Notes: generated from the letters alone by a model not told the origin. A stretch of 15,214 nt of DNA from Candidatus Iainarchaeum sp. (GCA_903916665.1 CAIWXP010000146.1:1-15214); one strand, 5' to 3'. Positions 3 through 15,173 are shown, counted from the first letter of the stretch. A program made the numbers and translations.

Positions 3-3000
3 ATTGAAAGAAATAAAATTAGAGATGAACAAAGAAGACTGCAAGAAGATGCTAAAAAAAAAAATGAATTGGTAAAACAAAAAGTTAGAGCAGAGGACGC
101 AAAAAAATTAGCTGAAGAAAAAAGAAAAGCATTGGAAGAAGCTAGAAAAAAAGCCGATGCTGAATTAAGATTACAAAAAGCAAGAGAAGAAGAACAACTA
201 AAAATAAGACAATCAGAATTGCAAACAACATTAGACAAAAAGCCAAGATCAAAAGAAGAATTAAAACGAATAATAAAAGAATTAATTGAAGAAATAAAAA
301 ATGGTTTAGGTTCAGCAACAGTAAAAGAAACATTTAGTGAAGATGAAATTTCTAAATTAGCAAATTATTTTTATGAAATTGAAAAAAGAACCGGTGCTCA
401 AATTGATTTATCAAAAATATTTTATAGGAGTTCTGCAAAAAATATTTTAATATTATTAAATAATGGTTTAGAATATTTTTTACCTAATGCTGTTGAAAAA
501 GTTAATGAAGACACTAAATATTTTACCTGTCCAATAGTTGAATCAAGTAGAAAGTATTGTTTGATTTATGTGGTTAAGAATGGAGAAACTAAACCAGCTG
601 TATATTATACTTCGAATTCATCTGTAAGTTGGAGATTGGTTGCACAAAGAGGAACAGCAAATCCAGAACAATTTGATCCTAGTTATTTAAATAAATCAAA
701 TAGGGGAGAAGATGCCTTAGCATTACCTTGGGAATTACAAAAGAAATTAGATGCTCAGAAACCAGTTAATAAAATAATTAATATGAAATATATCTCTCCA
801 TTTTTGGGAGATATATATACCGAATCTCCAGATATAGAAAGAAAATTAATTAAAAGTAAAGATTTGAATAGCTGGGAAGATATTAAAGAAGTTGAAGATG
901 TTATTAATAGTAGTATTAAAGCAGGGCAAGCTAAAAGACCAATTATTGATATTAAGAAAATAGAAAACCAACCTAATTTTTCAAAAGTATTAGAAGTATG
1001 GAATATTCATTCTTCAATGTATGGAGACATGAAAAAAGTAAGTGTTGAAAGTAACGATGGTCAATTGGTTTGGATTTTTAATGTTACTAAATATGGTTCC
1101 TTTGTTAATACAATACAAACAAAAAAACATATTTTATCAAAATATGGTTTGGCAACGGTTCCTGAATTCTCAACAGAATATGATGATTTAATGATGACGA
1201 TGCCAGCTTTAGAGTATCACATACAACCATTGAGACAAATAGCATCTAGATTATTATTAGAAAGATTAGATACTCATTTTTATGGCACCCACAATAAACA
1301 ATTTGTTGATTTATTAGAAATACATGTAAAAGAAATTGTTGAAAATATGAGGCCCGAACATATTGTTGAATTAAAAAAATTAGGTGTTGGTTTAGGACTA
1401 ACAGATCCTGCATTAATAATAAAAAATTATGTTTTAAAATCGATTAAAAAAATGGCAGATGCAAAACAATCAAATGATAAAAATGGCTATGATAATGAAA
1501 GAAAAAAATGGGATAAATTTAAAGAAGATATTGAAAATGCATTGATAATTTCTTCAAAATCTGTTGGATCCTATATGCCAGTAACAAAAACATTATTATC
1601 TCATCCTTTTTTAGCAAGTATTCAAGATCCTTTGAATAGAATTGCAAATGTAGAAAAAATTACGCAAACTTCAAGAAATCCAATTGTTTCACCATTAAAA
1701 ACAGAAGTAAGAGAAAAAAGTATAGATATTTTTAGAATATTTAATAAATACGAAGGTACAGAAAATGGTTTTGTATTTAGTAGATATTTACAATTGTTAA
1801 ATGTAATTGGTAAAAGACAATCAGAAAGAACTTTTGGGGTAACTTCAGAATATATTGATATAGCAGATAAAGCTAATAAAGCAATAGAACAATTTGAAAA
1901 AAAAGAAATTAATGAAAAGTTTTTTAATCATGTTTTTGATGATTTAATTGATATTGCTAATAAACGAAAAAATAGTAATCTTCCAAAACCTAAGGCACCT
2001 GAACCACCTAGACAAAAACCAGGTGAGCCACGAGTAATAAAAGTAAATGTACCTACAGCTCCAAGAAAAAAATTATTAAAAGAAGTTGAGCCAATTGGTG
2101 AACAAGAAAGCGAACCAATAGGAACAAAATCAGATTTAAAAAGATATGTTGAAGAACCATTATTAGCAGCAGCAGAATTATTCTATGATTTAAATATTTC
2201 AACAGTTACAGGTTCTGCAAATAAAAAACATGTTAAAGGATTTAATGTTTATTTAGGAATTGACGGAAGTAAATTAACTCCTGAGAATTTAGCAATTGCA
2301 AAAAGATTGGGTGCATTAAATGGTGGACCACACGCATTGGATAAAGATAAATTAGTATTTAGTATTCCTGTAACCGGAGAAGAAACAGTCGAAGAAATTA
2401 GCAATAAATTTTTAGTAATAGCAAAACAATTTAAAAAACAAGAACTTTCAAAGCCAACACCAAAAAAAGGACCCGAATCTCCAAAACCAAAAGCGCCAGA
2501 ACCACCAAAACCTAATGGTTCAAAAGGACCAGGCCCTATACTGCCAGGCGAACCTAGAGTTATTTTAAATGGTCCAAGAGTAAAATTAACGGGACCAGAT
2601 GCAGCAATAGTTGATTTAGGAAGAATGGATGGTGTTAGTCAAAAAGGTCCAACACGATTAAATGATGAAGATTGGACAACTAGGCCAACAAATTCAAAAG
2701 AATTAAGTCTTTTAGAATTAGAAATTTTAGAAAATTTAAAAAATAGGGCAAGAAAAAAATATGGTGAATTTGGGGATAATTTAGTTTCTGAAATTGCGAA
2801 AAAATCAAAATTAAATATATTAAAGAATGGTGGCGAAGAATTAACAAAAAATGAATTGCAATATTTAGAACGAGAATACAATGAAAGAATACAAGCCTAT
2901 GAACTATTAAAATCATTAAATAATTATGGTTTGGGCGAATATTTTAGCATTGGTGATGCACAAAGAATAATATTTAATATGGTTAAATTTGGATTATTTA

Positions 3001-4028
3001 AAGATGGTTCAGAACTAAAAAGTGTAACTCAAAAAGAAGGCAAAACAGTTTTAACATTATTTCCTGAAATGAAATTAAATTTACCCTTTGATAAAAAAAC
3101 AATTTATTTAGTTTTAGATGATCATTCAATTTTAGAATTAACCCCAAGATTTGCATCGGGTGCTAATTTTTTAGGATTTGCAAGAAAGAAATATTCTAGT
3201 GAAATTTCAAAAGACAATCCAAAAGTAATGGGATTTGTTTTTGTTGATAAAGATGCACATGGTTTTGGTTATCAAAGCTATAGTTTAGAAGAACCAAAAA
3301 AAGAACCAGTATTTGAGCATCCAAAAATAAATTCACAAACAAATGAAAGATTAGTAACTGCAATTAAAAGTGATAATATTGATGCAATTGGAAAACTTTT
3401 CGAACAAAAAGTAGATTCAGGAGAAGTATTGGGTATGCTATTTGTTTTAGAACATGGTTTAGCAGAAATTGATTTCCCTAGTAGAGGAGGATTTGCTGCT
3501 GCAAAAGCTAATTTTCCAGATAAATTTAAACAATTGGGGGAATTTTTAAAACAAATGTTAAAATGGAATTTGACAGCTCAAGAAATTGTAAAAATAAAAC
3601 AAATATTAACAAATCATTTTGATTGGAAAGAAACTAAACCTGCTCAACCAAGGCCTCCCACACCACCTAAGGAAGGACCACAAAGAATTAGAGTAGCGCC
3701 AGGAAATATTGTAGATGAAGAAGTTGAACAATTGGACATTCCTAGAACCCATTCTCCAATGCCAATTAGTGAAACTAGTTTATCTGGTCAAATATTAAGA
3801 AAATATTTAGAATTAAAATTTTATGGATTAAATACAACAAATAGCAATAATTTTGTTATTGCCTGTGAAATAAGATTTATTCATTTAGCTTTTAAAGAGG
3901 GTTTAATTAACGAACAAAAACTATTAGAAGATTGGGATAGATTATTAAAATTAGCAGTTCAAAGAAAAGTAGTTAAAACAGACAGCGCACCAATTATTTC
4001 AAAACCAGTACAAAAAGTAAATGTATAG
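3..4028 (+). CDS. Giant hypothetical protein, 5'-truncated by the window edge (1341 codons visible). It has a K/E/R-rich helical N-terminal part, three proline-rich spacers and several globular modules. No recognisable enzymatic motif.
   Basis: The frame is stop-free from nt 3 to TAG at 4026-4028. The ORF-track start at 69 is a TTG. There is no in-frame ATG and no SD-like motif in 3-68. The 22 upstream codons (IERNKIRDEQRRLQEDAKKKNE) continue the same charged-helix composition. A 4-kb open frame in ~30% GC DNA, where stop codons are AT-rich, cannot be chance. Confidence 0.85.
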   Translation: MERNKIRDEQRRLQEDAKKKNELVKQKVRAEDAKKLAEEKRKALEEARKKADAELRLQKAREEEQLKIRQSELQTTLDKKPRSKEELKRIIKELIEEIKNGLGSATVKETFSEDEISKLANYFYEIEKRTGAQIDLSKIFYRSSAKNILILLNNGLEYFLPNAVEKVNEDTKYFTCPIVESSRKYCLIYVVKNGETKPAVYYTSNSSVSWRLVAQRGTANPEQFDPSYLNKSNRGEDALALPWELQKKLDAQKPVNKIINMKYISPFLGDIYTESPDIERKLIKSKDLNSWEDIKEVEDVINSSIKAGQAKRPIIDIKKIENQPNFSKVLEVWNIHSSMYGDMKKVSVESNDGQLVWIFNVTKYGSFVNTIQTKKHILSKYGLATVPEFSTEYDDLMMTMPALEYHIQPLRQIASRLLLERLDTHFYGTHNKQFVDLLEIHVKEIVENMRPEHIVELKKLGVGLGLTDPALIIKNYVLKSIKKMADAKQSNDKNGYDNERKKWDKFKEDIENALIISSKSVGSYMPVTKTLLSHPFLASIQDPLNRIANVEKITQTSRNPIVSPLKTEVREKSIDIFRIFNKYEGTENGFVFSRYLQLLNVIGKRQSERTFGVTSEYIDIADKANKAIEQFEKKEINEKFFNHVFDDLIDIANKRKNSNLPKPKAPEPPRQKPGEPRVIKVNVPTAPRKKLLKEVEPIGEQESEPIGTKSDLKRYVEEPLLAAAELFYDLNISTVTGSANKKHVKGFNVYLGIDGSKLTPENLAIAKRLGALNGGPHALDKDKLVFSIPVTGEETVEEISNKFLVIAKQFKKQELSKPTPKKGPESPKPKAPEPPKPNGSKGPGPILPGEPRVILNGPRVKLTGPDAAIVDLGRMDGVSQKGPTRLNDEDWTTRPTNSKELSLLELEILENLKNRARKKYGEFGDNLVSEIAKKSKLNILKNGGEELTKNELQYLEREYNERIQAYELLKSLNNYGLGEYFSIGDAQRIIFNMVKFGLFKDGSELKSVTQKEGKTVLTLFPEMKLNLPFDKKTIYLVLDDHSILELTPRFASGANFLGFARKKYSSEISKDNPKVMGFVFVDKDAHGFGYQSYSLEEPKKEPVFEHPKINSQTNERLVTAIKSDNIDAIGKLFEQKVDSGEVLGMLFVLEHGLAEIDFPSRGGFAAAKANFPDKFKQLGEFLKQMLKWNLTAQEIVKIKQILTNHFDWKETKPAQPRPPTPPKEGPQRIRVAPGNIVDEEVEQLDIPRTHSPMPISETSLSGQILRKYLELKFYGLNTTNSNNFVIACEIRFIHLAFKEGLINEQKLLEDWDRLLKLAVQRKVVKTDSAPIISKPVQKVNV
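1983..2072 (+). repeat. Proline-rich spacer copy 1 in giant protein 1 (PKPKAPEPPRQKPGEPRVIKVNVPTAPRKK)
   Basis: It shares KPKAPEPP and PGEPRVI with copy 2 at 2451-2597. The DNA differs at synonymous positions (cct aag gca cct gaa cca cct vs cca aaa gcg cca gaa cca cca). Confidence 0.7.
2451..2597 (+). repeat. Proline-rich spacer copy 2 in giant protein 1 (KPTPKKGPESPKPKAPEPPKPNGSKGPGPILPGEPRVILNGPRVKLTGP)
   Basis: Same KPKAPEPP...PGEPRVI motif order as copy 1. A third, more diverged spacer (KPAQPRPPTPPKEGPQRIRVAPG) lies at 3636-3704. Confidence 0.7.
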
Positions 4029-4155: not shown

Positions 4156-4181
4156 TATAATTATGTTTAAAAGTGATACTA

Positions 4182-6626
4182 ATGGAAACTAATGTTAATA
4201 CTGAAAAATCTATTGAAAAAAAGCAAGAAATTAATCAAAAACCTGCTGAGCCAAAAAAAGATTATAAAGAAACTGAAAAAGAAATTTGGGATTTCTGGCA
4301 AAAGGAGCTGGTATACAAATACGATCCAAAATCAACTAAACCTATTTTTAGTATTGATACTCCTCCTCCAACAGTTTCCGGAAAAATGCACCTGGGTCAT
4401 GCCTATTCCTATGTGTTACCAGATTTTATTGCTCGTTATAAAAGAAAAAAAGGATTTAATGTTTTTTATCCTTTTGGCTTAGATGATAATGGCATTCCAA
4501 CTGAGATATTGGTAGAAAAATTAGCAAATGTAAGAGCAAAAGAAGTAGGAAAAAGTAAATTTATTGAATTGTGTTTAAAACATACAAAAGAATCCGAAGA
4601 AGAATTATATGCTGATTTTAAAAGTTTAGGAATATCCTGTGATTGGAATTTATTATATAGAACCATATCCCCAGAAGTAGTTAAGGTTGCGCAATATTCA
4701 TTTTTAGATTTACATAAAAAAGGAAAAATATATAGAGAAAAGGGACCAATATTATGGTGCACTAAATGTCAAACTGCCATATCACAAGCAGAATTAGAAG
4801 ATCATAATAAAGATACTTATTTTAATGATTTAATTTTCAAATTAGATAATGGGGAAAATATAATTATTGCAACCACTAGACCTGAATTTTTAGCTGCCTG
4901 TGTTGCAATATTTGTTCATCCTGAAGATGAAAAAAATAAACATTTAGTTGGTAAATACGCAACTGTACCTTTATTTAATTTCAAAGTAAAAATATTGGCC
5001 GATAAAAGAGTTGCTCAGGACAAAGGAACTGGTATTGTAATGTGCTGTACCTTTGGTGATCAAACCGATATGGAATGGTATAAAAGTTATAAATTAGAAT
5101 TAAAAGAAGCTATTTCAATTGATGGCCGAATGACTAGTATTTGTGGAAAATATGCAGGAATGAAAATTGAAGAAGCAAGAAAAGAAATTATTGAAGAATT
5201 AAAACAACAACATTTAATTGTTGAACAAAAGAAAATTTCACACGCAGTTAATTGCCATGAAAGATGCTCTACTCCTGTGGAAATTATTGTTGAATCACAA
5301 TGGTACATTGATTACATGAACGACAAAAAATTATTTATTGAAGAAGCAAATAAAATTGATTGGAAACCAAAACATATGAAAGTGAGATATGATAATTGGG
5401 TAAATAATTTACAATGGAATTGGTGTATCTCAAGACAAAGATACTATGGTGTTCCTTTTCCTGTTTGGTTTTGTAAAAAATGTGGTAAAACTATTTTTGC
5501 AGAAGAAAAAGATCTACCAATCTATCCTGAAGAAACTATGCCAAAGCAAAAATGTTCCTGCGGTTCCGAATCTTTTATTGCAGAATCATCGGTAATGGAT
5601 ACTTGGTCAATTAGTGCATTAACTCCTTTGATAAATTTAGGTTGGCCAAAAAAGAATATTGATGGCACATTACCTATGAGCATGAGACCTCAGGGTCAAG
5701 ATATTATTACATTGTGGGCATTTAATACCGTTGTAAAAAGTTTATATCACACAGGAAAAATTCCTTGGAATACATTAATGATTAACGGCTATGTTTTAGA
5801 TCCTAAAGGAGAAAAAATGTCTAAGAGCAAAGGTAATGTAATTGGGCCACAAGAAACTTTAACAAAATGGGGCAAAGATCCATTTAGATATTGGAGTGCT
5901 CAAATGACATTGGGAAATGATATTGCCTATTCCGAAAAAGAAATGCAAGCTGGACAAAAATTAATTATTAAATTGGATAATGCAATGAAATTTGTAGATA
6001 TCATGTTACAAAATTATAGCACCATACCAAAATTAAAAGAAATAAAAAAATTAAATGCAACTGATGCATGGATTTTAGCAAAATTAAATAAAATCATAAA
6101 AGAAAATACTGAAGATTTAGAAAAATTTGATTATACACATGCTATTCAAAGAATTAGAGATTTTTTCTTTATTGATTTTTGTGATAATTATATGGAATTT
6201 GTAAAATATAGAGTTTACGGAAATGACGAGGAATCAAAAAAAGCATTGGCCTATACTTTGTTTAATGTTTCATTTCAAATTGTAAATCAATTAAGTATCT
6301 TTATGCCTTTTATTTGTGAAGATGTTTATTTGAAATATTTCAAAAAGCATATAAATACAAAAAGTATAACATCATGCGATTGGCCAAATTCGGAAAATTA
6401 TTTAGAAGAAGATTTAACTAATGGAGAATTATTAAAAGAAATTGTTGGGCAAGTAAGGAAATATAAGAGCCAAAAAGCAATGTCTATGAAACAAGAATTA
6501 GCCAATGTTATAATAAGTTCACCCAAATCTTTACATATTGATTTAAAAAGTGAATTATTATATATAATGTTTATAAAGAAAGTAAATATAATTGAGGGGC
6601 AAGATATAACAATCTTGGAGGAATAA
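4182..6626 (+). CDS. valS: Valyl-tRNA synthetase (class Ia aminoacyl-tRNA synthetase, archaeal type, about 814 aa)
   Basis: PPPTVSGKMHLGHAYSY carries the HIGH-type motif HLGH at 4389-4400. The KMSKS motif lies at 5814-5828 (GEKMSKSKGN). CP1 editing-domain motifs TTRPEF and GTGIVMCCTFGDQTD are present, as is WCISRQRYYGVPFPVWFC. There are Cys pairs (CTKC, CKKCGK, CSCGS). The track start at 4173 is GTG; the ATG at 4182 (METNVNTEK...) fits the TATA spacing better. Stop TAA at 6624-6626. Confidence 0.9.
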   Translation: METNVNTEKSIEKKQEINQKPAEPKKDYKETEKEIWDFWQKELVYKYDPKSTKPIFSIDTPPPTVSGKMHLGHAYSYVLPDFIARYKRKKGFNVFYPFGLDDNGIPTEILVEKLANVRAKEVGKSKFIELCLKHTKESEEELYADFKSLGISCDWNLLYRTISPEVVKVAQYSFLDLHKKGKIYREKGPILWCTKCQTAISQAELEDHNKDTYFNDLIFKLDNGENIIIATTRPEFLAACVAIFVHPEDEKNKHLVGKYATVPLFNFKVKILADKRVAQDKGTGIVMCCTFGDQTDMEWYKSYKLELKEAISIDGRMTSICGKYAGMKIEEARKEIIEELKQQHLIVEQKKISHAVNCHERCSTPVEIIVESQWYIDYMNDKKLFIEEANKIDWKPKHMKVRYDNWVNNLQWNWCISRQRYYGVPFPVWFCKKCGKTIFAEEKDLPIYPEETMPKQKCSCGSESFIAESSVMDTWSISALTPLINLGWPKKNIDGTLPMSMRPQGQDIITLWAFNTVVKSLYHTGKIPWNTLMINGYVLDPKGEKMSKSKGNVIGPQETLTKWGKDPFRYWSAQMTLGNDIAYSEKEMQAGQKLIIKLDNAMKFVDIMLQNYSTIPKLKEIKKLNATDAWILAKLNKIIKENTEDLEKFDYTHAIQRIRDFFFIDFCDNYMEFVKYRVYGNDEESKKALAYTLFNVSFQIVNQLSIFMPFICEDVYLKYFKKHINTKSITSCDWPNSENYLEEDLTNGELLKEIVGQVRKYKSQKAMSMKQELANVIISSPKSLHIDLKSELLYIMFIKKVNIIEGQDITILEE
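6617..6621 (+). promoter_or_regulatory. Shine-Dalgarno-like GGAGG for the 2009-aa gene, embedded in the last codons of valS
   Basis: The sequence reads ttGGAGGaataattATG: GGAGG at 6617-6621, a 7-nt spacer, then ATG at 6629. The valS stop TAA at 6624-6626 lies between the SD and the ATG. Confidence 0.6.
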
Positions 6627-6628
6627 TT

Positions 6629-9600
6629 ATGCCAGTATTAGCTGAAAAACCAAAACCTTTAGCAAACAACAAATTTAGAGAAATGAAAGAAGTTCATAGT
6701 GCCAAAGGTAGAGAAGTAGCATATAAAAGATTATATAACATTGATAATCCTAAATTTGCAGATGTTTTCGGCAAGGCATTGGAAGAAACTCAAATCCCTC
6801 AAAGAAGTTTAATGATATTAAATGCTAATCTGGATAAAAATCAAAGACTGGATATGTTAAGAAAAGAAATCCTAGATAATTTATATGTAACTGCTAATTT
6901 TCAAGTTAAGGAAATGTCTCCCAAAGATAGGGAAAGAACATTTCGTTTTATTTTAAGTGTTATTGTTAGAAATTTAAGAATTAAAGGACAATTAACTATT
7001 AATCCATTTACAGGTAAACCATTACCTCCAATTGGACCAAATCCTACACCTTCAGCACCGCAAGGAAATCCTCAAGGACCTGCACAAAGATCTACCGGAC
7101 CAACTCCTTCTGTTACTTCAACAAGACCAGTAGCACCAACTCCTGGTGTACCTAGTTCTAGAGCAAGACCCGCACCTTCGCAAGTTGCTCCTACTCCTTC
7201 TGGACCTTCGAGACCAGAAACTAGAAGACCTGAAGAAATTGTTAGACCCACTGAACCAAGTATGGCCGATGCTCAAAGAGAAGTTATTAATGTTTTAAGA
7301 GCAAGAACAAAACAAGCAGAAATTGATGAATCCTATAGACAAAGACAAGCTGAGCAAGATGAATTAAAAAGAAGACAAGAAGAAGAAGCTTGGAATAGAA
7401 AAAATGCACAGGATAATCAAAATAAAGAAACATTAAGATTACAAGAAGACAGAGAGAAAAAACTATTTACAAAATCAAGAATAAATATTGCTGAAATTTT
7501 TAATGATTATGAAAAACATTTGGATTTTATGATAAGTATTGGACAAATGACTGAAAAAAGAAAACAAGAATTATTAAACACTTTACAAAGACAAATACCT
7601 AGATTAGGTGCAGAAAAAGCAAGAAATATGATTACTAAAATTTTAGAAAATGACAGAACAAGAATGACTCCTCAACAAAGACAACAAGAAGTTAATGAAA
7701 GACCAACACCGGGACCTGTTACTGCTCCTAGTCAACCAATTGTAAATATTGGTGCAGATAGAATAGGAGCAGAACCAATAGCAACTATATCAACAACACC
7801 GTCTAAAGGAATTGGCGCAGATAGAATTGGTGTTACTCCCGTAAGATCTAGTGAAAGAGGATCAGTTGCAATAACTGCTCAAGAAGAAGCAGCTAAATCT
7901 GCAAGAGTTGCTTTAACCGCAGAAAGACAAAAATTAGCAAATACTTTAGCAGCAAGACAAGCAGCATTGAGTAGAGATGGTAGTGTAAAAATAACAGAAA
8001 GAGATGCAGTAGCAAGAGCTGCTAGGGAAGCACAAGCCCCTAGTGTAGCACCTAGACCTTCTGAAGATAGAAGTGTTGGAATAACTGCAAAAGAAGAAAA
8101 AGCAAGAGCTGCAAAAGAATTAGAATTGCAAAAAGCAAAAGAAGAAGCAGCTAGAATTGCAGAAGCAGGAAGAAGAGAACATGAAATTGTTACCTATAGT
8201 TTATTGGCAAATGAATTAAGTAGAATTAGAAATACATTGGATATTTCTGATGTTAAAACAGCACAGGATTTAGAAGCTAAATTAAAATTGGGACAATTAA
8301 AAATGGACATTAGAATGGTTCACAATATGATTGCAGAAAATATAGATGTAATGAAACAACCTGAAATTGATAATTACACTAAGCAATTATATGATGCAGA
8401 AGATTTATTATATAATTTAAAAAGATTTGAAGAAAATATTGATAAATTCTCACCACAGAGTACTCAAGAATTATTATTTTGGTTAAAAACAGATGTGGAT
8501 AGAAATTGGTTAGGTAATTATATTACATTTGTAATTAATGGTGAAAAAGGAATAAGACCTTTGCCCGACTTTTTTGAAAAAATTGGTGGCGATGCAAAGG
8601 ATTGGGGAATATTAAATAAATATGCTAACGACCATGACATTGTTGGAGAACAAAGAGTTAAATTTTTATTTGATTGGCAAGATGAAACACCAGAAAACCT
8701 AAGGAGTTTTATAGAAGATTTTTCTCCAGAAACACCAGAATCATTGGAAATGCCAAATCCTGTTCCTTTAGATGTATTACCAGAACCAGAAGTTCAATAT
8801 GAAGATCCAGAACTAGAAAGAATCAGAAAAGATAACGATAGAAGAAGAGATATGCTAGATTTAATTGAACGAGAATCTGATGTTTTGGGTACAGTGTTTA
8901 TGCCAACCAATATGTCTGAATTTGATCTACAAGCAGATAAATTAGCAAGTGATAGAGTTGCACAATTAAAAGAAAATATACAAAAACAATTAAAAGAATC
9001 TAGAGCAAATAAAAGTGCAGAAGATGAAAAATTAGAACCTTTAAGAAAGCAAATTAAAAAAGATTATAATGTATTACAAAATATTGTTAGATTAGTTTCT
9101 TTATTAAATCCAGAAAGAAGAAAAGAATATTATGATGCATTGGATAAAATAATGAGAGATACAAAATCTTCAGATTTAGAAACAAATGTTGCGGCTCATA
9201 GAACTGCTATTATTGTATTTAAAAGTTTTTTAGAAACTGCAATAGACAAATTAATTTTTGAATATGGCGACTATGAAAAAGTAATTAAAGAAAATAAAAA
9301 GACACCTTTAGAATGGGTTACAAATTCATTGGAATCAATAAAATCAAGATTAGCAGAATTACCAGAATATAAAGATGTTTTACCAAAAATTGAACAGGCA
9401 TTACAAGCAAAACATAATTATGTAAGTTTAAGAACCGCAAAAAGAATAACTCACGATATAGAAACATTAACAACAATGGATCTAAGAGATGTTGAAACTG
9501 TTTTTGCATTAAGATCAAGATACAGATTTCAACAAATGGAAGATAGATTATTAGAATTTGATAGGTTATTAGCTGATTTAACAGTAAATGGAAATTTATC

Positions 9601-12600
9601 TTATCAAAATACATTAGAATTATTAGATGCACAACTATCTCCAAATAGATTCCATAAAGCAATGAAAATCATTTTTGATAATCCTATGTTATTTAATTCT
9701 AAAATAAATGAATTATTAACTATTTTAAAAACTAGCTACACTTCAACTAGTGGAATAGACGCAAAAACAAGAGAGGTAGATTTATTAGAAGAATTTGTTA
9801 ATACAACATTACAAGCAAATCAAAGAAAGACATTACCAGCACCAGGCTATTCAACAATTACAAATGAAGATATTGCAAAGGATGTTGCCCAAATGTTAAT
9901 TGATTTAAGAAATAAAAGTGCAAGAACAAGATATGAAGCAGGATTAGTATTACAAGCAGATATTGATGCTAGAGATGCTAAAAGACAAGCACAACAAGCA
10001 AGATTAGCTGGAAAAGAAACACCAGAAGAAACATTAAGATTAGATAGAATTGCAAGAAGACAGGCAAGATCAAATAAAAGAATTAATGATCCAAAAGTTC
10101 AAGCAAGAATTGCACAACAAGGTAAAAGAACAAAGGTAAGAGGAGAAGTATTAGAACTAGATGGTAATGATAGTTCTCATTCAGCAATAGCAGAAGAAGA
10201 ACCAGTTGTATTAAAAGATCCAAATCAAACAGAATTTGATTTTAATAATGATGTAAATGCAAAAATAGGTCCAACAAGACTTGCAAAAACAGAAGCAGTA
10301 ATTAGTGAATTACAAATTCAAGAATCTTTTAGCTATGAAAAAATACCTGCAAAACAAGAAGAACAAGAAAAAAGAAAAATTAATAAAGCATTAAGTAGAA
10401 TAAGTAAAAAATATGGAATGGATATTAATGCTGCAAATTTAGAAAGAATTGTTATTAGAATAGATGGTATTGTTAAAATTGGAGATTTTACATTAAAACC
10501 AATTGCAAATATTAGCGATGGAGTATATGTTGAAGAAACTAGTGCTGATGGCAGTAAAAAAATGGTAAAATTAAAATCTAATCAATTAGGAGTTTATTCA
10601 ACCAATAGATTATTTACCTATAATATTGGTACTTTATATGATTCGATTTCAGTTAGAAATCATGGTAAACAATTTGTAGAAAATCTATTAGGTTTATTAA
10701 TACCTCAAAAAGATGGATCTATGGTTGTTTATAGACCCAAAAAACAATATTTAGAAAGAAAAAAAAAAGATGAATCTTCAAGGATAGCAGCATCTACAGA
10801 ATTACCAAAAGGTCAAGTTGATTTATTTGGTGGTAATTCAGAATCAGTTCCTGAAAGAGATGCTAACGAATCAGAAATAAATGAAAATACAGAAGGTCAA
10901 TTAGATTTATTTACAGAACAACAAAAAAAAGATGAAACTGAAAAATCCTATGGCGAAAGATTAGCACAACAAGAAGTACAAAAAATAAGAACTGAAGAAG
11001 AAATGTATAGACAAAGAGATGCTGATGAATTATTAGATCAAACTGAATTAAAATCTTTAGAGCAAGAAGAAGCTGCAGAAGTACAACAACAAGCAGCATA
11101 CAGAACAGCAGCAGGTCAAAGAGATGAAATAAATAGACAAAGAGCAGTTTTTCCTAGCACAGACTATGCAGGACCCGTAACTCAAGGAAAAGAATTAGCA
11201 AAATATGTTGACAAAAAAACATTATTATTAGATAAACTTTCAAAAGCACCAACTATTTTTAATACATTAAAAAATACATTAGAAAATACTACCCCTGAAT
11301 TAGCAAGAAATCCAGAGATAAATCCAATTATTGAAGGAGAAGTATTAAACAATCAATTTGTTATACCTGCAAACGTTCTAGGCCCTAATACAATAGGTTT
11401 TCCCAAAAATCATTTGGTAATTTTAGGACGAAATAATTATACTGTTATTGATTCTTTTGGAAAAGTAGAAACATTTAATCTAGATAAACCTTTGGTTAGA
11501 GATATATCAAGATACAATGGAATATTTATGTTAACCGATGAAGGATTGGTTTGTTGGAGATTGAGTAAATACAATAATAAAATAACAAAAATTAATTCAG
11601 AAGACCCAAATTCTGGTTCTGAAAAAGCATTAACAAGAGAAGCAATTGAAGCAGCAAGACCAAAGGAAATTATAACACCTTTACAAATATTAGAAGATCC
11701 TAGAGCACAAATATTTGCAGCCATAGATAGATTACCCACTGAATTGAAAGATGCTATAAATCTTAGAATTGGAACATTATCAGAAGAAGAAAGAAAACCT
11801 AAATTAATTATGGATCCTTTAGTTTTAAATGATTTAATAGAATTAAGAAAAGAGCCTTCGGCTTTAAGAGAAGACGGAAATACATTGGGAAATAATTATT
11901 ATATTCCTGCAGGTTTATTAACACAGGAACCAATAAATATTTTTGAAAACCATTTATATGTTATTGGAAGAAATAAATTAACAATAGTGAAACCAGATGG
12001 AAAAATTGAAATTGTTAATTATCCTCGATTACCAGAAAATGTATCTGGCGAACAGGGTGCATTTATGTTAACAAGTAAAGGATTTGTATCTTGGAATTTT
12101 GGTTTAAATAAAAATGTAAAATTTGATTTAGAATTAAGATCTAAGCAAATGGATTTACCTGTAGATGCACAATTAGCCTATGACGATATTTTTAAAACGG
12201 CTAAAAGAAAAGGATTAACAAAAACAGCAAATAAATCAGCAATAGAAGCTAAAAAACAAGGATTATTAGATACAAAACAAATAAGAAGTATATTACAAGC
12301 AGAATTTCAAGATAGATCTAGAGTTGCAAAATATTTAGATGATGATTTTGCTAGTAATACAACAAGAACTGTTTTAAGAACAAATGTAAAAGGTTCTGCT
12401 ACATTTAATATGAATGGTTATCAATTAACAGTAACTGATAATGGAATAACTGTCGATGATTTTATGGGCACACACATAATAAACAACCTCACATTAAATG
12501 AAGGCCAAACATTGGTTGCTAACGGAAAAATAAAACTATATACTGAAAGAGCATTTGGTGCTTTTGAAACAAGTAGATTTGTAGGAACTGCAATAGCCGT

Positions 12601-12658
12601 ACCTAAATTTTATATAACTAGATTTGGAGATCGTTTGGTAATACATACATTACCCTAA
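6629..12658 (+). CDS. Giant hypothetical protein (2009 aa). It has an N-terminal globular domain, a P/S/T-rich spacer, charged coiled-coil/Ala-rich repeats, a long helical middle and a duplicated beta-rich C-terminal module. No recognisable enzymatic motif, signal peptide or TM helix.
   Basis: ATG with a GGAGG 7 nt upstream. The frame is open for 6 kb in AT-rich DNA, and all overlapping ORFs are short antisense artefacts. Stop TAA at 12656-12658 is followed by an oligo-T tract. Confidence 0.9.
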   Translation: MPVLAEKPKPLANNKFREMKEVHSAKGREVAYKRLYNIDNPKFADVFGKALEETQIPQRSLMILNANLDKNQRLDMLRKEILDNLYVTANFQVKEMSPKDRERTFRFILSVIVRNLRIKGQLTINPFTGKPLPPIGPNPTPSAPQGNPQGPAQRSTGPTPSVTSTRPVAPTPGVPSSRARPAPSQVAPTPSGPSRPETRRPEEIVRPTEPSMADAQREVINVLRARTKQAEIDESYRQRQAEQDELKRRQEEEAWNRKNAQDNQNKETLRLQEDREKKLFTKSRINIAEIFNDYEKHLDFMISIGQMTEKRKQELLNTLQRQIPRLGAEKARNMITKILENDRTRMTPQQRQQEVNERPTPGPVTAPSQPIVNIGADRIGAEPIATISTTPSKGIGADRIGVTPVRSSERGSVAITAQEEAAKSARVALTAERQKLANTLAARQAALSRDGSVKITERDAVARAAREAQAPSVAPRPSEDRSVGITAKEEKARAAKELELQKAKEEAARIAEAGRREHEIVTYSLLANELSRIRNTLDISDVKTAQDLEAKLKLGQLKMDIRMVHNMIAENIDVMKQPEIDNYTKQLYDAEDLLYNLKRFEENIDKFSPQSTQELLFWLKTDVDRNWLGNYITFVINGEKGIRPLPDFFEKIGGDAKDWGILNKYANDHDIVGEQRVKFLFDWQDETPENLRSFIEDFSPETPESLEMPNPVPLDVLPEPEVQYEDPELERIRKDNDRRRDMLDLIERESDVLGTVFMPTNMSEFDLQADKLASDRVAQLKENIQKQLKESRANKSAEDEKLEPLRKQIKKDYNVLQNIVRLVSLLNPERRKEYYDALDKIMRDTKSSDLETNVAAHRTAIIVFKSFLETAIDKLIFEYGDYEKVIKENKKTPLEWVTNSLESIKSRLAELPEYKDVLPKIEQALQAKHNYVSLRTAKRITHDIETLTTMDLRDVETVFALRSRYRFQQMEDRLLEFDRLLADLTVNGNLSYQNTLELLDAQLSPNRFHKAMKIIFDNPMLFNSKINELLTILKTSYTSTSGIDAKTREVDLLEEFVNTTLQANQRKTLPAPGYSTITNEDIAKDVAQMLIDLRNKSARTRYEAGLVLQADIDARDAKRQAQQARLAGKETPEETLRLDRIARRQARSNKRINDPKVQARIAQQGKRTKVRGEVLELDGNDSSHSAIAEEEPVVLKDPNQTEFDFNNDVNAKIGPTRLAKTEAVISELQIQESFSYEKIPAKQEEQEKRKINKALSRISKKYGMDINAANLERIVIRIDGIVKIGDFTLKPIANISDGVYVEETSADGSKKMVKLKSNQLGVYSTNRLFTYNIGTLYDSISVRNHGKQFVENLLGLLIPQKDGSMVVYRPKKQYLERKKKDESSRIAASTELPKGQVDLFGGNSESVPERDANESEINENTEGQLDLFTEQQKKDETEKSYGERLAQQEVQKIRTEEEMYRQRDADELLDQTELKSLEQEEAAEVQQQAAYRTAAGQRDEINRQRAVFPSTDYAGPVTQGKELAKYVDKKTLLLDKLSKAPTIFNTLKNTLENTTPELARNPEINPIIEGEVLNNQFVIPANVLGPNTIGFPKNHLVILGRNNYTVIDSFGKVETFNLDKPLVRDISRYNGIFMLTDEGLVCWRLSKYNNKITKINSEDPNSGSEKALTREAIEAARPKEIITPLQILEDPRAQIFAAIDRLPTELKDAINLRIGTLSEEERKPKLIMDPLVLNDLIELRKEPSALREDGNTLGNNYYIPAGLLTQEPINIFENHLYVIGRNKLTIVKPDGKIEIVNYPRLPENVSGEQGAFMLTSKGFVSWNFGLNKNVKFDLELRSKQMDLPVDAQLAYDDIFKTAKRKGLTKTANKSAIEAKKQGLLDTKQIRSILQAEFQDRSRVAKYLDDDFASNTTRTVLRTNVKGSATFNMNGYQLTVTDNGITVDDFMGTHIINNLTLNEGQTLVANGKIKLYTERAFGAFETSRFVGTAIAVPKFYITRFGDRLVIHTLP
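11351..11584 (+). repeat. C-terminal module copy 1 of giant protein 2 (NQFVIPANVLGPNTIGFPKNHLVILGRNNYTVIDSFGKVETF...GIFMLTDEGLVCW)
   Basis: It aligns by eye with copy 2 at 11891-12118: IPA, NHL, GRN, T[VI][IV], GK[VI]E and G.FMLT..G.V.W occur in the same order and spacing. Confidence 0.7.
11891..12118 (+). repeat. C-terminal module copy 2 of giant protein 2 (NNYYIPAGLLTQEPINIFENHLYVIGRNKLTIVKPDGKIEIV...GAFMLTSKGFVSW)
   Basis: See copy 1; the two copies start 180 codons apart. A degenerate third copy starts near 12401 (NGYQLTVTDNGITVDDFMGTHII...). Confidence 0.7.
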
Positions 12659-12682: not shown

Positions 12683-12958
12683 TTAAATTAAAACTAGAAT
12701 TAAAAATATAATAAAACAAATTATTGCAAAGGTTCTGTGATAGTAGGCTATTAAACTTAATAGTGGTGGAACTAAAAGCAATAAAATTGCTTCTTGCTTT
12801 AATATAATATGCATTGCAATATAGTAACCAAACAGACTACCCAATGCAAATATCATGAAAATAACGGCGACTAATAAAGATATTGATTTACCAACATATA
12901 ACCAAATTTTATCAAATAATTTTTCAAAAGGGGTACCTATAGTTTTCCAATCAACCAT
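12683..12958 (-). CDS. Small integral membrane protein (91 aa, about 3 TM helices)
   Basis: ATG is preceded by GGTGAG (12964-12969) with a 5-nt spacer. Three hydrophobic stretches are visible: SISLLVAVIFMIFALGSLFGYYIAM, AILLLLVPPLLSLIAYY and FAIICFIIFLILVLI. It is the last gene of a tightly spaced minus-strand cluster. Confidence 0.6.
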   Translation of the reverse strand: MVDWKTIGTPFEKLFDKIWLYVGKSISLLVAVIFMIFALGSLFGYYIAMHIILKQEAILLLLVPPLLSLIAYYHRTFAIICFIIFLILVLI

Positions 12959-12963
12959 AAAAT

Positions 12964-12969
12964 CTCACC
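12964..12969 (-). promoter_or_regulatory. Shine-Dalgarno-like GGTGAG for the 91-aa membrane protein gene
   Basis: The minus strand reads TAATTGGTGAGATTTTATG. GGTGA is complementary to the conserved ...UCACC... near the 16S rRNA 3' end. The spacer is 5 nt. It lies in the 18-nt gap after the 69-aa gene stop. Confidence 0.45.
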
Positions 12970-12976
12970 AATTAAA

Positions 12977-13186
12977 TTATATCATTTTTTTTGCCATCTT
13001 CTTTGCTTTTCTAAAACAACCTGTATGCCACATTTGACCTAACCATTTCCTATCGGGATTATCACCCTGGCAAAAAGCACATTTTTCTCCTGATGCTTTT
13101 GAATTTTCCTGAGCAATAACCTCTGGTGTTTGTTCTTCTTTACCTACTTTAGGAATTAATTTCTTTAAAAAATCTTTCATTGTCAT
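12977..13186 (-). CDS. Small zinc-finger protein (69 aa), C36-x2-C39-x14-H54-x2-C57, with a Lys-rich tail
   Basis: ATG start. KCAFCQGDNPDRKWLGQMWHTGCFRKAKKMAKKMI provides four metal ligands. It lies 24 nt downstream of the 546-aa gene and 18 nt upstream of the 91-aa gene on the same strand. Confidence 0.65.
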   Translation of the reverse strand: MTMKDFLKKLIPKVGKEEQTPEVIAQENSKASGEKCAFCQGDNPDRKWLGQMWHTGCFRKAKKMAKKMI

Positions 13187-13210
13187 TTAATCGCCCTATA
13201 TTAAATTAAT

Positions 13211-14851
13211 TTATTTTTGCCAATTCTTAATATCAAACTCACTGTCTGTATTATACCCTTGGAATGTTTGCTTCAAATCCTCTTGATTTGGTTTTTCTTC
13301 TTTATTAGTTTGTTTTTGATCTTCCTTTGGTTCATTCTCTTTCTTGGGTTTTCTTTTAAACAAATTTTTCCAAAATGTAATAAATCCATTTTCCTTTTTT
13401 GGTTCTTCTTGAGATATGTCGTGTTTTTCTAATTCTTTTGTATAATTATTTATACTTTCATCACTAATGTGTGCTTCATCAACACTTAAATCTTCATCGT
13501 TTACTTGTACTTTTTCTTTATTATCTGAAAATATTGCATTCATTAATTCGCTTGAAGGTTTATTAGCTTTATAATTATTTGTATCTTTTTCTTCTTTAAT
13601 GGTTTCATCAAATGTTTGTTTAGGCTCTTTTTTTCTAGTCGTCAATATTCTTTCATTTAAATAGGATACTTTTATACTATATTCATTTAATTTAGACTCA
13701 AATTCCCTTTTGTTTATATCGCCTTGTAAATATTTTTCTTTTATTTCCTTAAGTTTTGTTTTATAATTATCTCTTTCTATTGTAAGATCTTCCATGGTTT
13801 CTCTAGAAAATATTGCCCTAAGTATTAATATAATATTTATTAAAATAAAAATTCCTACTATAATTAAAAATAAAGTCCAATAGGTACCTGGATTTAAAGG
13901 CTCGGTAATTTGAGCATAGTAAATTTTATTATTAAATGAAAATCCTAAATTTTCATCTAAATTTGTAAATGGTATTAAAAGTTTATTATAACAAAATGAA
14001 TTATTTCTAATATAATATTCTTTTTCAGAGTCATTTAAATTTATTTTAAATATCCCCATATCATTAACTGAATCACCATTTGTGTATAAAACAGTAAAAC
14101 ATAGTTCAAAAGGATTACTAATAACAGTATTTTTAGGATTAGTTACTTCACCTATTTTTAATCCTTCTAATAAGGTTGAATTAATGATTAAATTTAAAGG
14201 ATATGTTTTTGTACCTTTTATTGTTTTATTAAATGTACAATAAATAGGAATTGTATTTGTATCTTCTTTAACAGTTAATAAATAATTACAATTATTTGAT
14301 TTAGAACAATCAAAACTAGTTTCAGAATCATAGGAGTTTAATGAACATTTTAAATCAGATATTTGTTGATTTTTCAAATCTTCAAAGTTTAATAATATTT
14401 CTTTTTGTTCACCAATTGTTAATGTTTTATAATCGTCTAAAGGATTATTTTTTAATTTAATGATTTCAGTTATATCCCCAATGGGATAGGTTTGCTTTGT
14501 ATTGGTAAAGCTACCTTCTAAAGAAGTAATAATGGATAATACTAATTTACCATCGGTTAACATATCTTTTGTTATTATTGTATTTTGCAAATGATATATA
14601 TTTCCTGAATCTTTAGAAAAAGTATATTTATTTGTTCCAATTTTAACAGACAAATTATTTATATTTGGATAATTTAATATCTGTTTGTTACTATCAACCA
14701 ATAAAATTTTCAAATCAACTATATTGGTTCCAATATAATAAGGACTACTATTTGGATATTGAGTATTTATTTCATAGTTTATTTGGTTAGAATATGCAAA
14801 ACCAAATAATAATAAAATAAAAAAGATGGAAAAGAAAATTTTGGAGTTCAT
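13211..14851 (-). CDS. Type I membrane protein (546 aa). It has a signal peptide, an ectodomain of about 300 aa with Cys and N-x-S/T sequons, one TM helix, and a K/E-rich cytoplasmic tail of about 200 aa with a SHOCT-like helix.
   Basis: The N-terminus MNSKIFFSIFFILLLFGFAYS/NQ is signal-peptide-like (14789-14851). The TM helix YWTLFLIIVGIFILINIILILRAIF lies at 13808-13882. The tail contains LKEIKEKYLQGDINKREFESKLNEY (13679-13765). It is a long ORF in AT-rich DNA. Confidence 0.85.
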   Translation of the reverse strand: MNSKIFFSIFFILLLFGFAYSNQINYEINTQYPNSSPYYIGTNIVDLKILLVDSNKQILNYPNINNLSVKIGTNKYTFSKDSGNIYHLQNTIITKDMLTDGKLVLSIITSLEGSFTNTKQTYPIGDITEIIKLKNNPLDDYKTLTIGEQKEILLNFEDLKNQQISDLKCSLNSYDSETSFDCSKSNNCNYLLTVKEDTNTIPIYCTFNKTIKGTKTYPLNLIINSTLLEGLKIGEVTNPKNTVISNPFELCFTVLYTNGDSVNDMGIFKINLNDSEKEYYIRNNSFCYNKLLIPFTNLDENLGFSFNNKIYYAQITEPLNPGTYWTLFLIIVGIFILINIILILRAIFSRETMEDLTIERDNYKTKLKEIKEKYLQGDINKREFESKLNEYSIKVSYLNERILTTRKKEPKQTFDETIKEEKDTNNYKANKPSSELMNAIFSDNKEKVQVNDEDLSVDEAHISDESINNYTKELEKHDISQEEPKKENGFITFWKNLFKRKPKKENEPKEDQKQTNKEEKPNQEDLKQTFQGYNTDSEFDIKNWQK

Positions 14852-14858
14852 ACGAAAC

Positions 14859-15173
14859 CTACATTTTCCTCAAACTTTCCAAACACTCATTACAAATAGT
14901 TATATTTTTAAAATTTGTAAAATTTTCTGTAACTAAACCGCAAGAACTACATCTTACTTCTTCTGCATCATCCAATGCCCAATCTCTTAAAAATTCCCAA
15001 GTAATCCAAGAAGGCATAATTAGTTCTCTTAAAACTGATTTATCATTTTCTACTATTCTTTTCTTAAATAAAGCAGGTATTTTTTGATCTATTGTTTGCA
15101 ACCATCTTGCCCTATCTGATTGTCCAGTTCTTTGCAATTTCATGGCCATTTCTTCAATTTGTTTTTTGTCCAT
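14859..15173 (-). CDS. Small protein (104 aa) with a C-terminal C4 zinc finger (C75-x2-C78-x15-C94-x2-C97)
   Basis: ATG is preceded by GGGGTG (15179-15184) with a 5-nt spacer. The C-terminus is RCSSCGLVTENFTNFKNITICNECLESLRKM. The TAG stop lies 7 nt before the ATG of the 546-aa gene. Confidence 0.7.
   Translation of the reverse strand: MDKKQIEEMAMKLQRTGQSDRARWLQTIDQKIPALFKKRIVENDKSVLRELIMPSWITWEFLRDWALDDAEEVRCSSCGLVTENFTNFKNITICNECLESLRKM

Follow-up and report, generated by a model that had tools for sequence, protein, structure and literature searches.

A nearly cysteine-free giant protein encoded beside valS in an AT-rich archaeon: member of an apparent small mosaic family and candidate flexible scaffold

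The SPEARE giants of Nanohaloarchaeota carry a Sec signal peptide and are described as membrane-anchored, and they combine Ig-like/fibronectin-like domains with a VirB4/TraG-like ATPase domain (PMC10266531). The present analysis concerns another archaeal giant, a predicted protein of 2009 residues encoded within a 15,214-nucleotide stretch of DNA from Candidatus Iainarchaeum sp. (GCA_903916665.1, CAIWXP010000146.1:1-15214; hereafter the window). Its gene follows valS, which encodes valyl-tRNA synthetase (ValRS), and a second giant precedes valS. The two giants appear to belong to a small family that is confined to a few related lineages and whose members share parts in different combinations. 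Although no reading of the function is secure, the one placed first here is that of a greatly elongated scaffold, modular and non-enzymatic, that would stay in the cytoplasm and serve as a flexible hub or tether.

Polymorphic toxins (LXG, CdiA and archaeal analogues) provide a second point of reference. They have a conserved N-terminal trafficking domain and variable C-terminal parts that recombine. Large hypothetical proteins are in any case plentiful in DPANN-type genomes.

The giant is encoded by one intact frame on the plus strand, which starts with ATG and runs from 6629 to 12658, stop codon included; an identical protein (P0001) is present in a public collection. With about 8% stops per random codon at this composition, the chance probability of an open run of 2009 codons is about 1e-76. 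A Shine-Dalgarno-like GGAGG, read from the sequence (6617 to 6621, plus strand), ends 7 nt short of the ATG, which itself lies 2 nt downstream of the ValRS stop codon TAA (6624 to 6626). The start codon is supported by the N-termini of the relatives, which align from residue 1 (MPVLAEKPKP, MPELVKAIKP, MPEKPRL and MAEPARIIK). In addition, other samples from this project yielded two short contigs that agree at 100% identity with the gene's 3' end and the flank beyond it. Thus, given the long frame at 28% guanine plus cytosine (GC), the strong Shine-Dalgarno sequence, the homologue-confirmed start and the identical independent 3' assemblies, the open reading frame (ORF) is a real gene that selection maintains in an AT-rich archaeon.

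Over 1-kb windows, the GC content of the stretch lies between 22 and 37%, with most values close to 28%. Between 6501 and 8000 it rises to 0.33-0.365 and the GC skew drops to about 0, against about 0.28 and a positive skew elsewhere over plus-strand genes; this is where the Pro/Ala/Arg/Gly-rich linkers of the giant are encoded. Neither an Rfam scan nor a tRNA scan detected anything in the window, and predicted promoters and terminators were about as numerous as in shuffled sequence.

By sequence comparison, the giant is not a singleton but part of a small mosaic family with a common N-terminal domain of about 125 residues. An exhaustive HMMER (phmmer) scan of 1.84 billion cluster representatives, with residues 810 to 2009 as the query, returned two relatives, P0004 (1932 residues) and P0005 (3228 residues), and nothing else. 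Both are intact ORFs found on three contigs each, and both lie beside valS. The sequence-only reading had called for a check of conservation and of synteny with valS, and had held that decay in related genomes would argue against function; the two relatives show the conservation and the synteny, and neither is decayed.

The two relatives share different parts with the giant. P0004 has an all-helical core that is 52-54% identical over 710 residues, a segment of 65 residues, one S-V-G-I-T unit, and the N-terminal domain (20% identity). The core is the only strongly conserved part of the giant, and its identity falls within the range of the flanking genes, 50-79%. Beyond the core there are 780 residues in the giant and 270 in P0004, with only a likeness of z = 5 between one beta segment of each, so that the two positional orthologues differ radically there. 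P0005, encoded at L005:7785-17471, shares the N-terminal domain (24% identity), the S-V-G-I-T units, and three copies of a helix-plus-beta module of about 130 residues. Five copies of this module are present over the two proteins, those of P0005 lying within residues 1944 to 2398.

Two more members are incomplete. The upstream ORF of the window (3 to 4028, plus strand) encodes at least 1341 residues; it is listed as 69 to 4028, but its frame extends back without a stop to base 3 of the contig, indicating that the contig end has removed its 5' part and with it the N-terminus. It matches P0005 380-827 at 44% identity through its residues 115-555 and P0005 1572-1669 through its residues 1109-1206, and it has Pro-rich KPKAPEPP linkers of its own. 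The other incomplete member is an ORF downstream of valS on contig L005, which starts with the family N-terminal domain and is then cut by the contig end. The features that define the family, namely the N-terminal domain of about 125 residues, the place beside valS and a depletion of cysteine, were all found.

The order giant, valS, giant is present both in the window and in the L005 lineage, in which P0005 is encoded on Logan contigs upstream of a ValRS (L005:17578-19980) that is 76% identical to that of the window. Despite this close relationship, the beta modules are in the downstream giant of the window and in the upstream giant of L005. Because the 130-residue module occupies opposite giants in the two lineages, modules have been exchanged between the two paralogues on either side of valS.

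A further motif, V-Y-x-P-T-Y-E-E-P...QLSEEEI[KR]RRN, occurs twice in P0004 (residues 171-210 and 485-525) and once in the truncated downstream giant of L005 (L005:20000-20647), and is absent from the giant of the window.

Other searches add little to the extent of the family. A word-indexed search of 5.8 billion proteins with the whole giant as the query found only the giant itself; P0004 was missed, presumably because low-complexity words filled the list of 8000 candidates. Profiles of the N-terminal domain (A1) and of the beta module (A4) recover all members locally, with E from 1e-46 to 1e-160, and local hmmsearch with A1 recovers all four carriers of the domain at E 1e-46 to 1e-67. Against the 5.8-billion-protein set the same two profiles gave zero matches, the members included, and since members missed there are recovered locally, this null result is uninformative on how far the family extends. 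A metagenome contig scan found only the contig already known, and genome contigs gave no match to either the protein or the core alignment.

In the giant itself, linkers poor in hydrophobic residues alternate with charged helices, a long region of helices, and beta modules (all features that follow are on the plus strand). It begins with the family domain (residues 1-128; 6629 to 7012), which recurs in P0004, in P0005 and in the ORF that follows valS in L005. Next comes a hydrophobic-poor linker rich in Pro, Ser, Thr and Gly, recognized by its composition and locally raised GC (residues ~129-211; 7013 to 7261); in wider limits it spans residues ~117-219, of which 60% are these four amino acids. 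A candidate charged helix rich in Glu, Lys, Arg and Gln follows (residues 224-275; 7298 to 7453), which a composition heuristic assigns to the single-alpha-helix type; by the same heuristic, residues 485-522 and 1430-1457 are also charged stretches of the ER/K type. A short conserved segment (residues 294-358; 7508 to 7702) is 48% identical to P0004 895-958. Residues 360-520 (7706 to 8188) form a linker in which GADRIG occurs twice and is followed by three units of S-V-x-I-T plus an Ala-rich or charged helix; the S-V-x-I-T motif recurs once in P0004 and three times in P0005. The S-V-G-I-T-x-x-E at the starts of charged helices looks like a helix N-cap, given the S/T-x-x-E pattern and the hydrophobic residues that precede it.

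The conserved all-alpha core (residues 510-1219; 8156 to 10285), which aligns with P0004 952-1655, consists of two helical domains with a P/E-rich linker between them (~695-725). Within it are basic helices rich in Arg, Gln and Ala (residues 1099-1173; 9923 to 10147) that include a conserved sequence, RIARRQARSNKR (RIARRKARAERR in P0004), and that have a net charge of +6 over residues 1121-1160. At its end stands a conserved Q-x-x-F-D-F-x-x-D-V-N motif (10232 to 10255), read as EFDFNNDV here and QFDFDSDV in P0004.

Past the core lies a beta-rich domain (residues ~1262-1375; 10412 to 10753), seen as low-confidence strands in an AlphaFold2 (AF2) model, where residues 1271-1370 come out rich in beta structure. 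It may be a beta module that has diverged very far, with a similarity that is not significant. GQVDLF (1395-1400) and GQLDLF (1423-1428) then stand in an acidic, hydrophobic-poor stretch (10811 to 10912), and a long acidic, Gln-rich helix (residues ~1426-1501; 10904 to 11131) appears as one 76-residue helix in the model, at model positions 207-282. The first copy of the helix-plus-beta module (residues 1528-1659; 11210 to 11605) holds the only cysteine of the protein; the second copy occupies residues 1699-1839 (11723 to 12145). The underlying duplication, residues 1569-1646 against 1749-1825, has 38% identity and E 1e-14, and it extends to modules of about 130 residues. The protein ends with a beta domain (residues ~1912-2009; 12362 to 12655) whose last residues are RLVIHTLP and which has a weak likeness to P0005 2540-2665 (z 3.2). 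Uniting all beta-rich segments in one domain family was considered and is not claimed, since the z-scores are only 3-5.

This layout agrees almost throughout with the succession of blocks first proposed for the protein: a P/S/T spacer, a charged helix, a helical region, a basic helix, a beta domain, the GQxDLF pair and a terminal duplication. The 'short tandem repeats' placed at 7748 to 8125 hold as peptide motifs, the two GADRIG and the three S-V-x-I-T units with their helices, but not as DNA repeats, for TRF finds no tandem repeat there.

Cysteine is almost absent from the giant. It has exactly one, residue 1642 in GLVCWRL, against 18 in the 817-residue ValRS, and the binomial probability of one or none is 2e-16 at the cysteine frequency of the non-giant neighbours. 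Other family members are similar: counts are 1 in 2009 residues for the giant, 0 in 1932 for P0004, 3 in 1319 for the upstream ORF and 8 in 3228 for P0005, a total of 12 in about 8500 residues. The 710-residue core has none in either of the two orthologues, the giant and P0004. Because ValRS has 18 cysteines and a 546-residue neighbour has six, the depletion is not a habit of the organism at large.

Hydropathy and motif scans point to a protein of cytoplasmic type with no recognizable catalytic parts. The highest 19-residue Kyte-Doolittle mean is 1.31, below the working cut-off of about 1.6 for a transmembrane segment, and the N-terminus is hydrophilic; the scan finds no signal peptide, transmembrane segment or hydrophobic C-terminal anchor. 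Walker A, HExxH and CxxC motifs are absent by regular expression over the whole protein. Thus, the sequence-only reading was right in describing an intact 6-kb ORF that lacks a signal peptide, a transmembrane segment and enzymatic motifs, and whose single cysteine in GLVCWRL contrasts with the many of ValRS.

No family in the searched libraries appears to include the giant. At E <= 0.1 it has no match in Pfam, NCBIfam, PHROGs or PADLOC; a PDB sequence search found nothing, and profiles of the three conserved parts found nothing significant in PDB. The best of these profile scores, E 0.05 (domain E 0.06-0.36), linked the N-terminal profile to the helical portion of two CdiA-CT toxins, and this lead was treated as noise. 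The AF2 model of the core (510-1219, aligned with P0004) is entirely helical, with a mean predicted local distance difference test score (pLDDT) of 58.3 and 201 residues at 70-90; its helices form bundles that are interrupted every 15-60 residues, with no continuous rod. In the model of the C-terminal 790 residues (pLDDT 41.7), helices alternate with short strands. Both models were built from alignments of only 2-3 sequences.

Foldseek found no match with E < 0.03, either in PDB for the two models or in BFVD for the core model. The top PDB rows for the core model are alpha-catenin, vinculin and spectrin, all with E >= 0.09 and TM-score <= 0.14, and phage tape-measure proteins are also among its top rows; none of these is significant. 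Membership in the vinculin/alpha-catenin family was rejected (Foldseek E 0.09-0.19, TM-score about 0.1, no Pfam match). For the C-terminal model, the top rows are RACK1 and other WD40 propellers (E >= 0.17, TM-score <= 0.13), again below significance and from a model with pLDDT 41.7. That the protein belongs to no named family, as first supposed, is borne out by all of these resources, and neither profile nor structure searches gave the confident match to a characterized family that would have spoken against novelty.

Three other identities were considered and set aside. A phage tape-measure or minor tail protein has a best BFVD E of 0.035 with a TM-score of 0.1 and no PHROG match, and the genes around the giant are housekeeping genes; tblastn against phage records found nothing, and IMG/VR viral contig scans found no relative. 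A tblastn search of plasmids gave only Pro-rich, low-complexity matches in Streptomyces. For an SMC/Rad50-type coiled-coil ATPase, there is no Walker A by regular expression and no Pfam or NCBIfam match. For an S-layer protein, adhesin or other giant surface protein, there is no signal peptide, transmembrane segment or anchor, and no adhesion domain in Pfam at E <= 0.1.

The hub or tether is ranked first because the protein is conserved, intact and of cytoplasmic type, has no recognizable catalytic parts, and carries docking-type domains held apart by spacers. The N-terminal domain and the conserved core would be the fixed docking parts, and the linkers and charged helices would act as spacers. 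The variable beta modules and the short linear motifs (S-V-G-I-T helix starts, FDF and GQxDLF) would recruit changing partners, so that the whole protein would not be an enzyme but a flexible hub or tether in a cell of very small size. The alpha-catenin, vinculin, spectrin and propeller rows are non-significant and are cited merely as compatible with a scaffold. The initial proposal of a scaffold, whether cytoskeleton-like, tethering or host-interacting, is likewise compatible with the models. Support for any mechanism comes from the architecture only.

Several points weigh against a hub. Both models are of low confidence (pLDDT 58.3 and 41.7) and would be compatible with a cryptic enzymatic or known fold, and the exhaustive homology scan covered residues 810-2009 only. 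The near-total avoidance of cysteine, which extends to the core (0 of 710 in both orthologues), would not be explained by a plain cytoplasmic scaffold. Finally, the rapid turnover outside the core and the exchange of C-terminal modules between paralogues are more typical of proteins shaped by conflict-driven selection.

The surroundings of the giant bear on the alternatives. Between the two giants lies valS (4173 to 6626, plus strand), whose product is an archaeal-type ValRS (NCBIfam PRK13208, 1000 bits). Downstream of the giant is a convergent conserved cluster of four genes on the minus strand (12683 to 15173), whose products are 62, 69, 50 and 79% identical to their L003 counterparts; the JGI contigs that encode P0004 have the same order as the window, valS, giant and then four convergent genes of 92, 66, 553 and 104 residues. 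In the window, the four products are a 91-residue protein with long hydrophobic stretches, a 69-residue protein that contains cysteine, a 546-residue protein, and a 104-residue CxxC...CxxC zinc-ribbon protein (79% identical in L003). None of the four reaches the curated cut-off of any family. The 546-residue protein reads as a signal peptide, an ectodomain, one transmembrane segment (~330-350) and a long charged tail that ends in SEFDIKNWQK; its six cysteines are at residues 169-287, before the hydrophobic segment.

The ValRS of the P0004 lineage (L004:1-2112) is only 32% identical to that of the window, although the four flanking genes are 50-79% identical. PRK13208 is the best model for both, with a far lower score for L004. 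This suggests that an essential synthetase gene has been replaced in place or is evolving very fast. In addition, a Bro-N domain protein and a tyrosine integrase are encoded a few kb from giants on related contigs (L003:14024-14944 and L005:4370-5212), and these are signs of mobile or viral DNA near the giants.

Genes on the related contigs show what kind of organism this is. An archaeal-type glycyl-tRNA synthetase (GlyRS) and the D-aminoacyl-tRNA deacylase DTD2 are encoded near the giants in L005, and farther along the P0004 contig are genes for an MscS channel, a TATA-binding protein, AMP phosphorylase and an IF-2B-family protein, presumably ribose-1,5-bisphosphate isomerase. The TATA-binding protein, DTD2 and the archaeal types of aminoacyl-tRNA synthetase, on the window or on syntenic contigs, mark the organism as an archaeon. 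The pairing of AMP phosphorylase with the IF-2B-family protein is taken here as a DPANN sign, and together with the low GC it makes a DPANN affiliation probable. An early guess at a DPANN-like archaeon fits this whole set, from the archaeal-type ValRS to the IF-2B-family protein.

The strongest competitor of the hub, although itself unlikely, is an exported or host-directed effector, akin to the polymorphic toxins, of an episymbiotic archaeon. The N-terminal domain would be a trafficking handle for an unrecognized export route, the core a delivery device or stalk, and the C-terminal modules and motifs the parts that act on or in a host. Several features of the giant fit this reading: variable regions come after a conserved N-terminal domain (the 780 residues after the core here have almost no similarity to the 270 of P0004), modules are swapped between paralogues, and the whole family is depleted of cysteine, at 12 in about 8500 residues. 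Short linear motifs within hydrophobic-poor linkers also fit. QVDLF (residues 1396-1400) and QLDLF (1424-1428) can be set beside the bacterial beta-clamp-binding consensus, which is QL[SD]LF. GQxDLF motifs are not present in P0004 or P0005. They are not PIP boxes either: the consensus for binding to PCNA is Qxx[ILM]xx[FY][FY], and GQVDLFGG and GQLDLFTE have no aromatic pair at positions 7-8.

The N-terminal profile does match the helical part of CdiA-CT toxins weakly (E 0.05), but the match is not significant. More generally, the giant has neither a signal peptide nor a transmembrane segment, no secretion-system gene is found among the called neighbours, and the family-library searches reveal no toxin, nuclease or peptidase domain. 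No small same-strand 'immunity' gene follows the giant; the downstream genes are convergent and are conserved between lineages. Nor is the exclusion of cysteine a mark of export here, because the exported-type 546-residue neighbour carries six cysteines. The effector is kept alive by what a hub leaves unexplained, namely the avoidance of cysteine, the fast turnover outside the core and the exchange of modules.

Less probable again is a scaffold linked to translation, in which the giants would be co-expressed with ValRS and would organize synthetases, tRNA or ribosomes, with RNA bound by the Arg-rich helix. The same-strand order giant, valS, giant is kept in three lineages, even where ValRS is only 32% identical, and the ATG of the giant, 2 nt past the valS stop, has its own Shine-Dalgarno sequence. 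GlyRS and DTD2 are close by in L005. The conserved basic helix (RIARRQARSNKR or RIARRKARAERR) resembles arginine-rich RNA-binding motifs, but basic helices are common. Moreover, the whole neighbourhood is syntenic in three close lineages, which makes adjacency weak evidence, and Pfam and NCBIfam reveal no known tRNA-binding or synthetase-appended domain.

A filament-forming protein of the cytoskeleton or of cell shape, rich in coiled coils or like an intermediate filament, is improbable. The large size, the long helices, the charged helical stretches and the continuous helix of 76 residues in the model would all suit a filament. However, hydrophobic residues make up only 12-25% of each 40-residue block in the charged helices, which would suit single helices standing alone more than heptad coiled coils. 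In addition, the core models as bundles whose helices are broken every 15-60 residues, and long Pro-rich linkers are atypical of filament formers.

A more specific version of the effector deserves very little credence: that the two giants form a host-interaction arsenal of cross-domain effectors, exported without a signal peptide by way of the N-terminal domain and mimicking beta-clamp motifs in a bacterial host. As for an assembly artefact or a decaying non-functional ORF, which has nothing positive in its favour, only the missing annotation and the rarity of the protein (3 proteins with E <= 0.001 among the 1.84 billion representatives), it is effectively refuted by the improbability of the open frame (~1e-76), by the identical 3' end in other samples and by the conserved core and start in intact relatives.

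What appears to be new here is a family in three lineages with a common N-terminal domain, a helical core of 710 residues, a repeat module of 130 residues, a paired arrangement around valS, and an exchange of modules between the pair. If the family is as it seems, then two giants beside an essential gene take up at least 10 kb here in one small clade of AT-rich archaea: 6 kb goes to this ORF and at least 4 kb to the truncated upstream ORF, while in the sister lineage the upstream gene alone takes 9.7 kb. A core of some 700 residues would be kept under constraint and the rest reshuffled. For the lineage-specific 'dark' proteins of ultra-small symbiotic archaea, the family would then be a bounded target, made up of the core, the N-terminal domain, the 130-residue repeat and a few short motifs. 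There is also a practical lesson, in that word-indexed homology searches can miss relatives of low-complexity giants that are 50% identical; only the exhaustive scan found them here.

Set beside the systems described at the outset, the family resembles the SPEARE giants, which are proteins of small symbiotic (DPANN) archaea, only in size, in its restriction to a lineage and in its variability between close relatives. There is no sequence similarity, and the signal peptide, the anchor, the Ig-like/fibronectin-like domains and the VirB4/TraG ATPase of SPEARE are all lacking in the giant. The likeness to polymorphic toxins lies in a conserved N-terminal domain with variable downstream modules, in recombination at the C-terminus and, as in LXG, in having no classical signal peptide. 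Unlike those toxins, the giant has no recognizable toxin domain, same-strand immunity gene or nearby secretion machinery, and its N-terminal domain matches no known trafficking domain, CdiA-CT being the best at E 0.05.

With respect to the beta-clamp motif, GQLDLF is an exact match and GQVDLF agrees at 4 of 5 positions, and the acidic stretch around both, poor in hydrophobic residues, is of the kind in which such motifs usually occur. Archaea, however, are known to use PCNA and not a beta clamp; the TATA-binding protein and the aminoacyl-tRNA synthetase types place the organism among the archaea, and the motif is absent from the relatives.

The remaining comparisons concern the architecture. 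Residues 224-275, 485-522 and 1430-1457 share, by composition alone, the make-up of ER/K single-alpha-helix spacers, being rich in Glu, Lys and Arg, poor in hydrophobic residues, and full of opposite-charge pairs at i/i+3 and i/i+4. The linker at 117-219 is the counterpart of the Pro-rich tethers of scaffold proteins. Serial helical-bundle adaptors, such as alpha-catenin, vinculin and the spectrin repeats, have no sequence similarity to the giant and resemble it only in general build, not as members of a family; in that build they share with it a run of antiparallel helices, like that of the core, together with flexible linkers and short peptide motifs.

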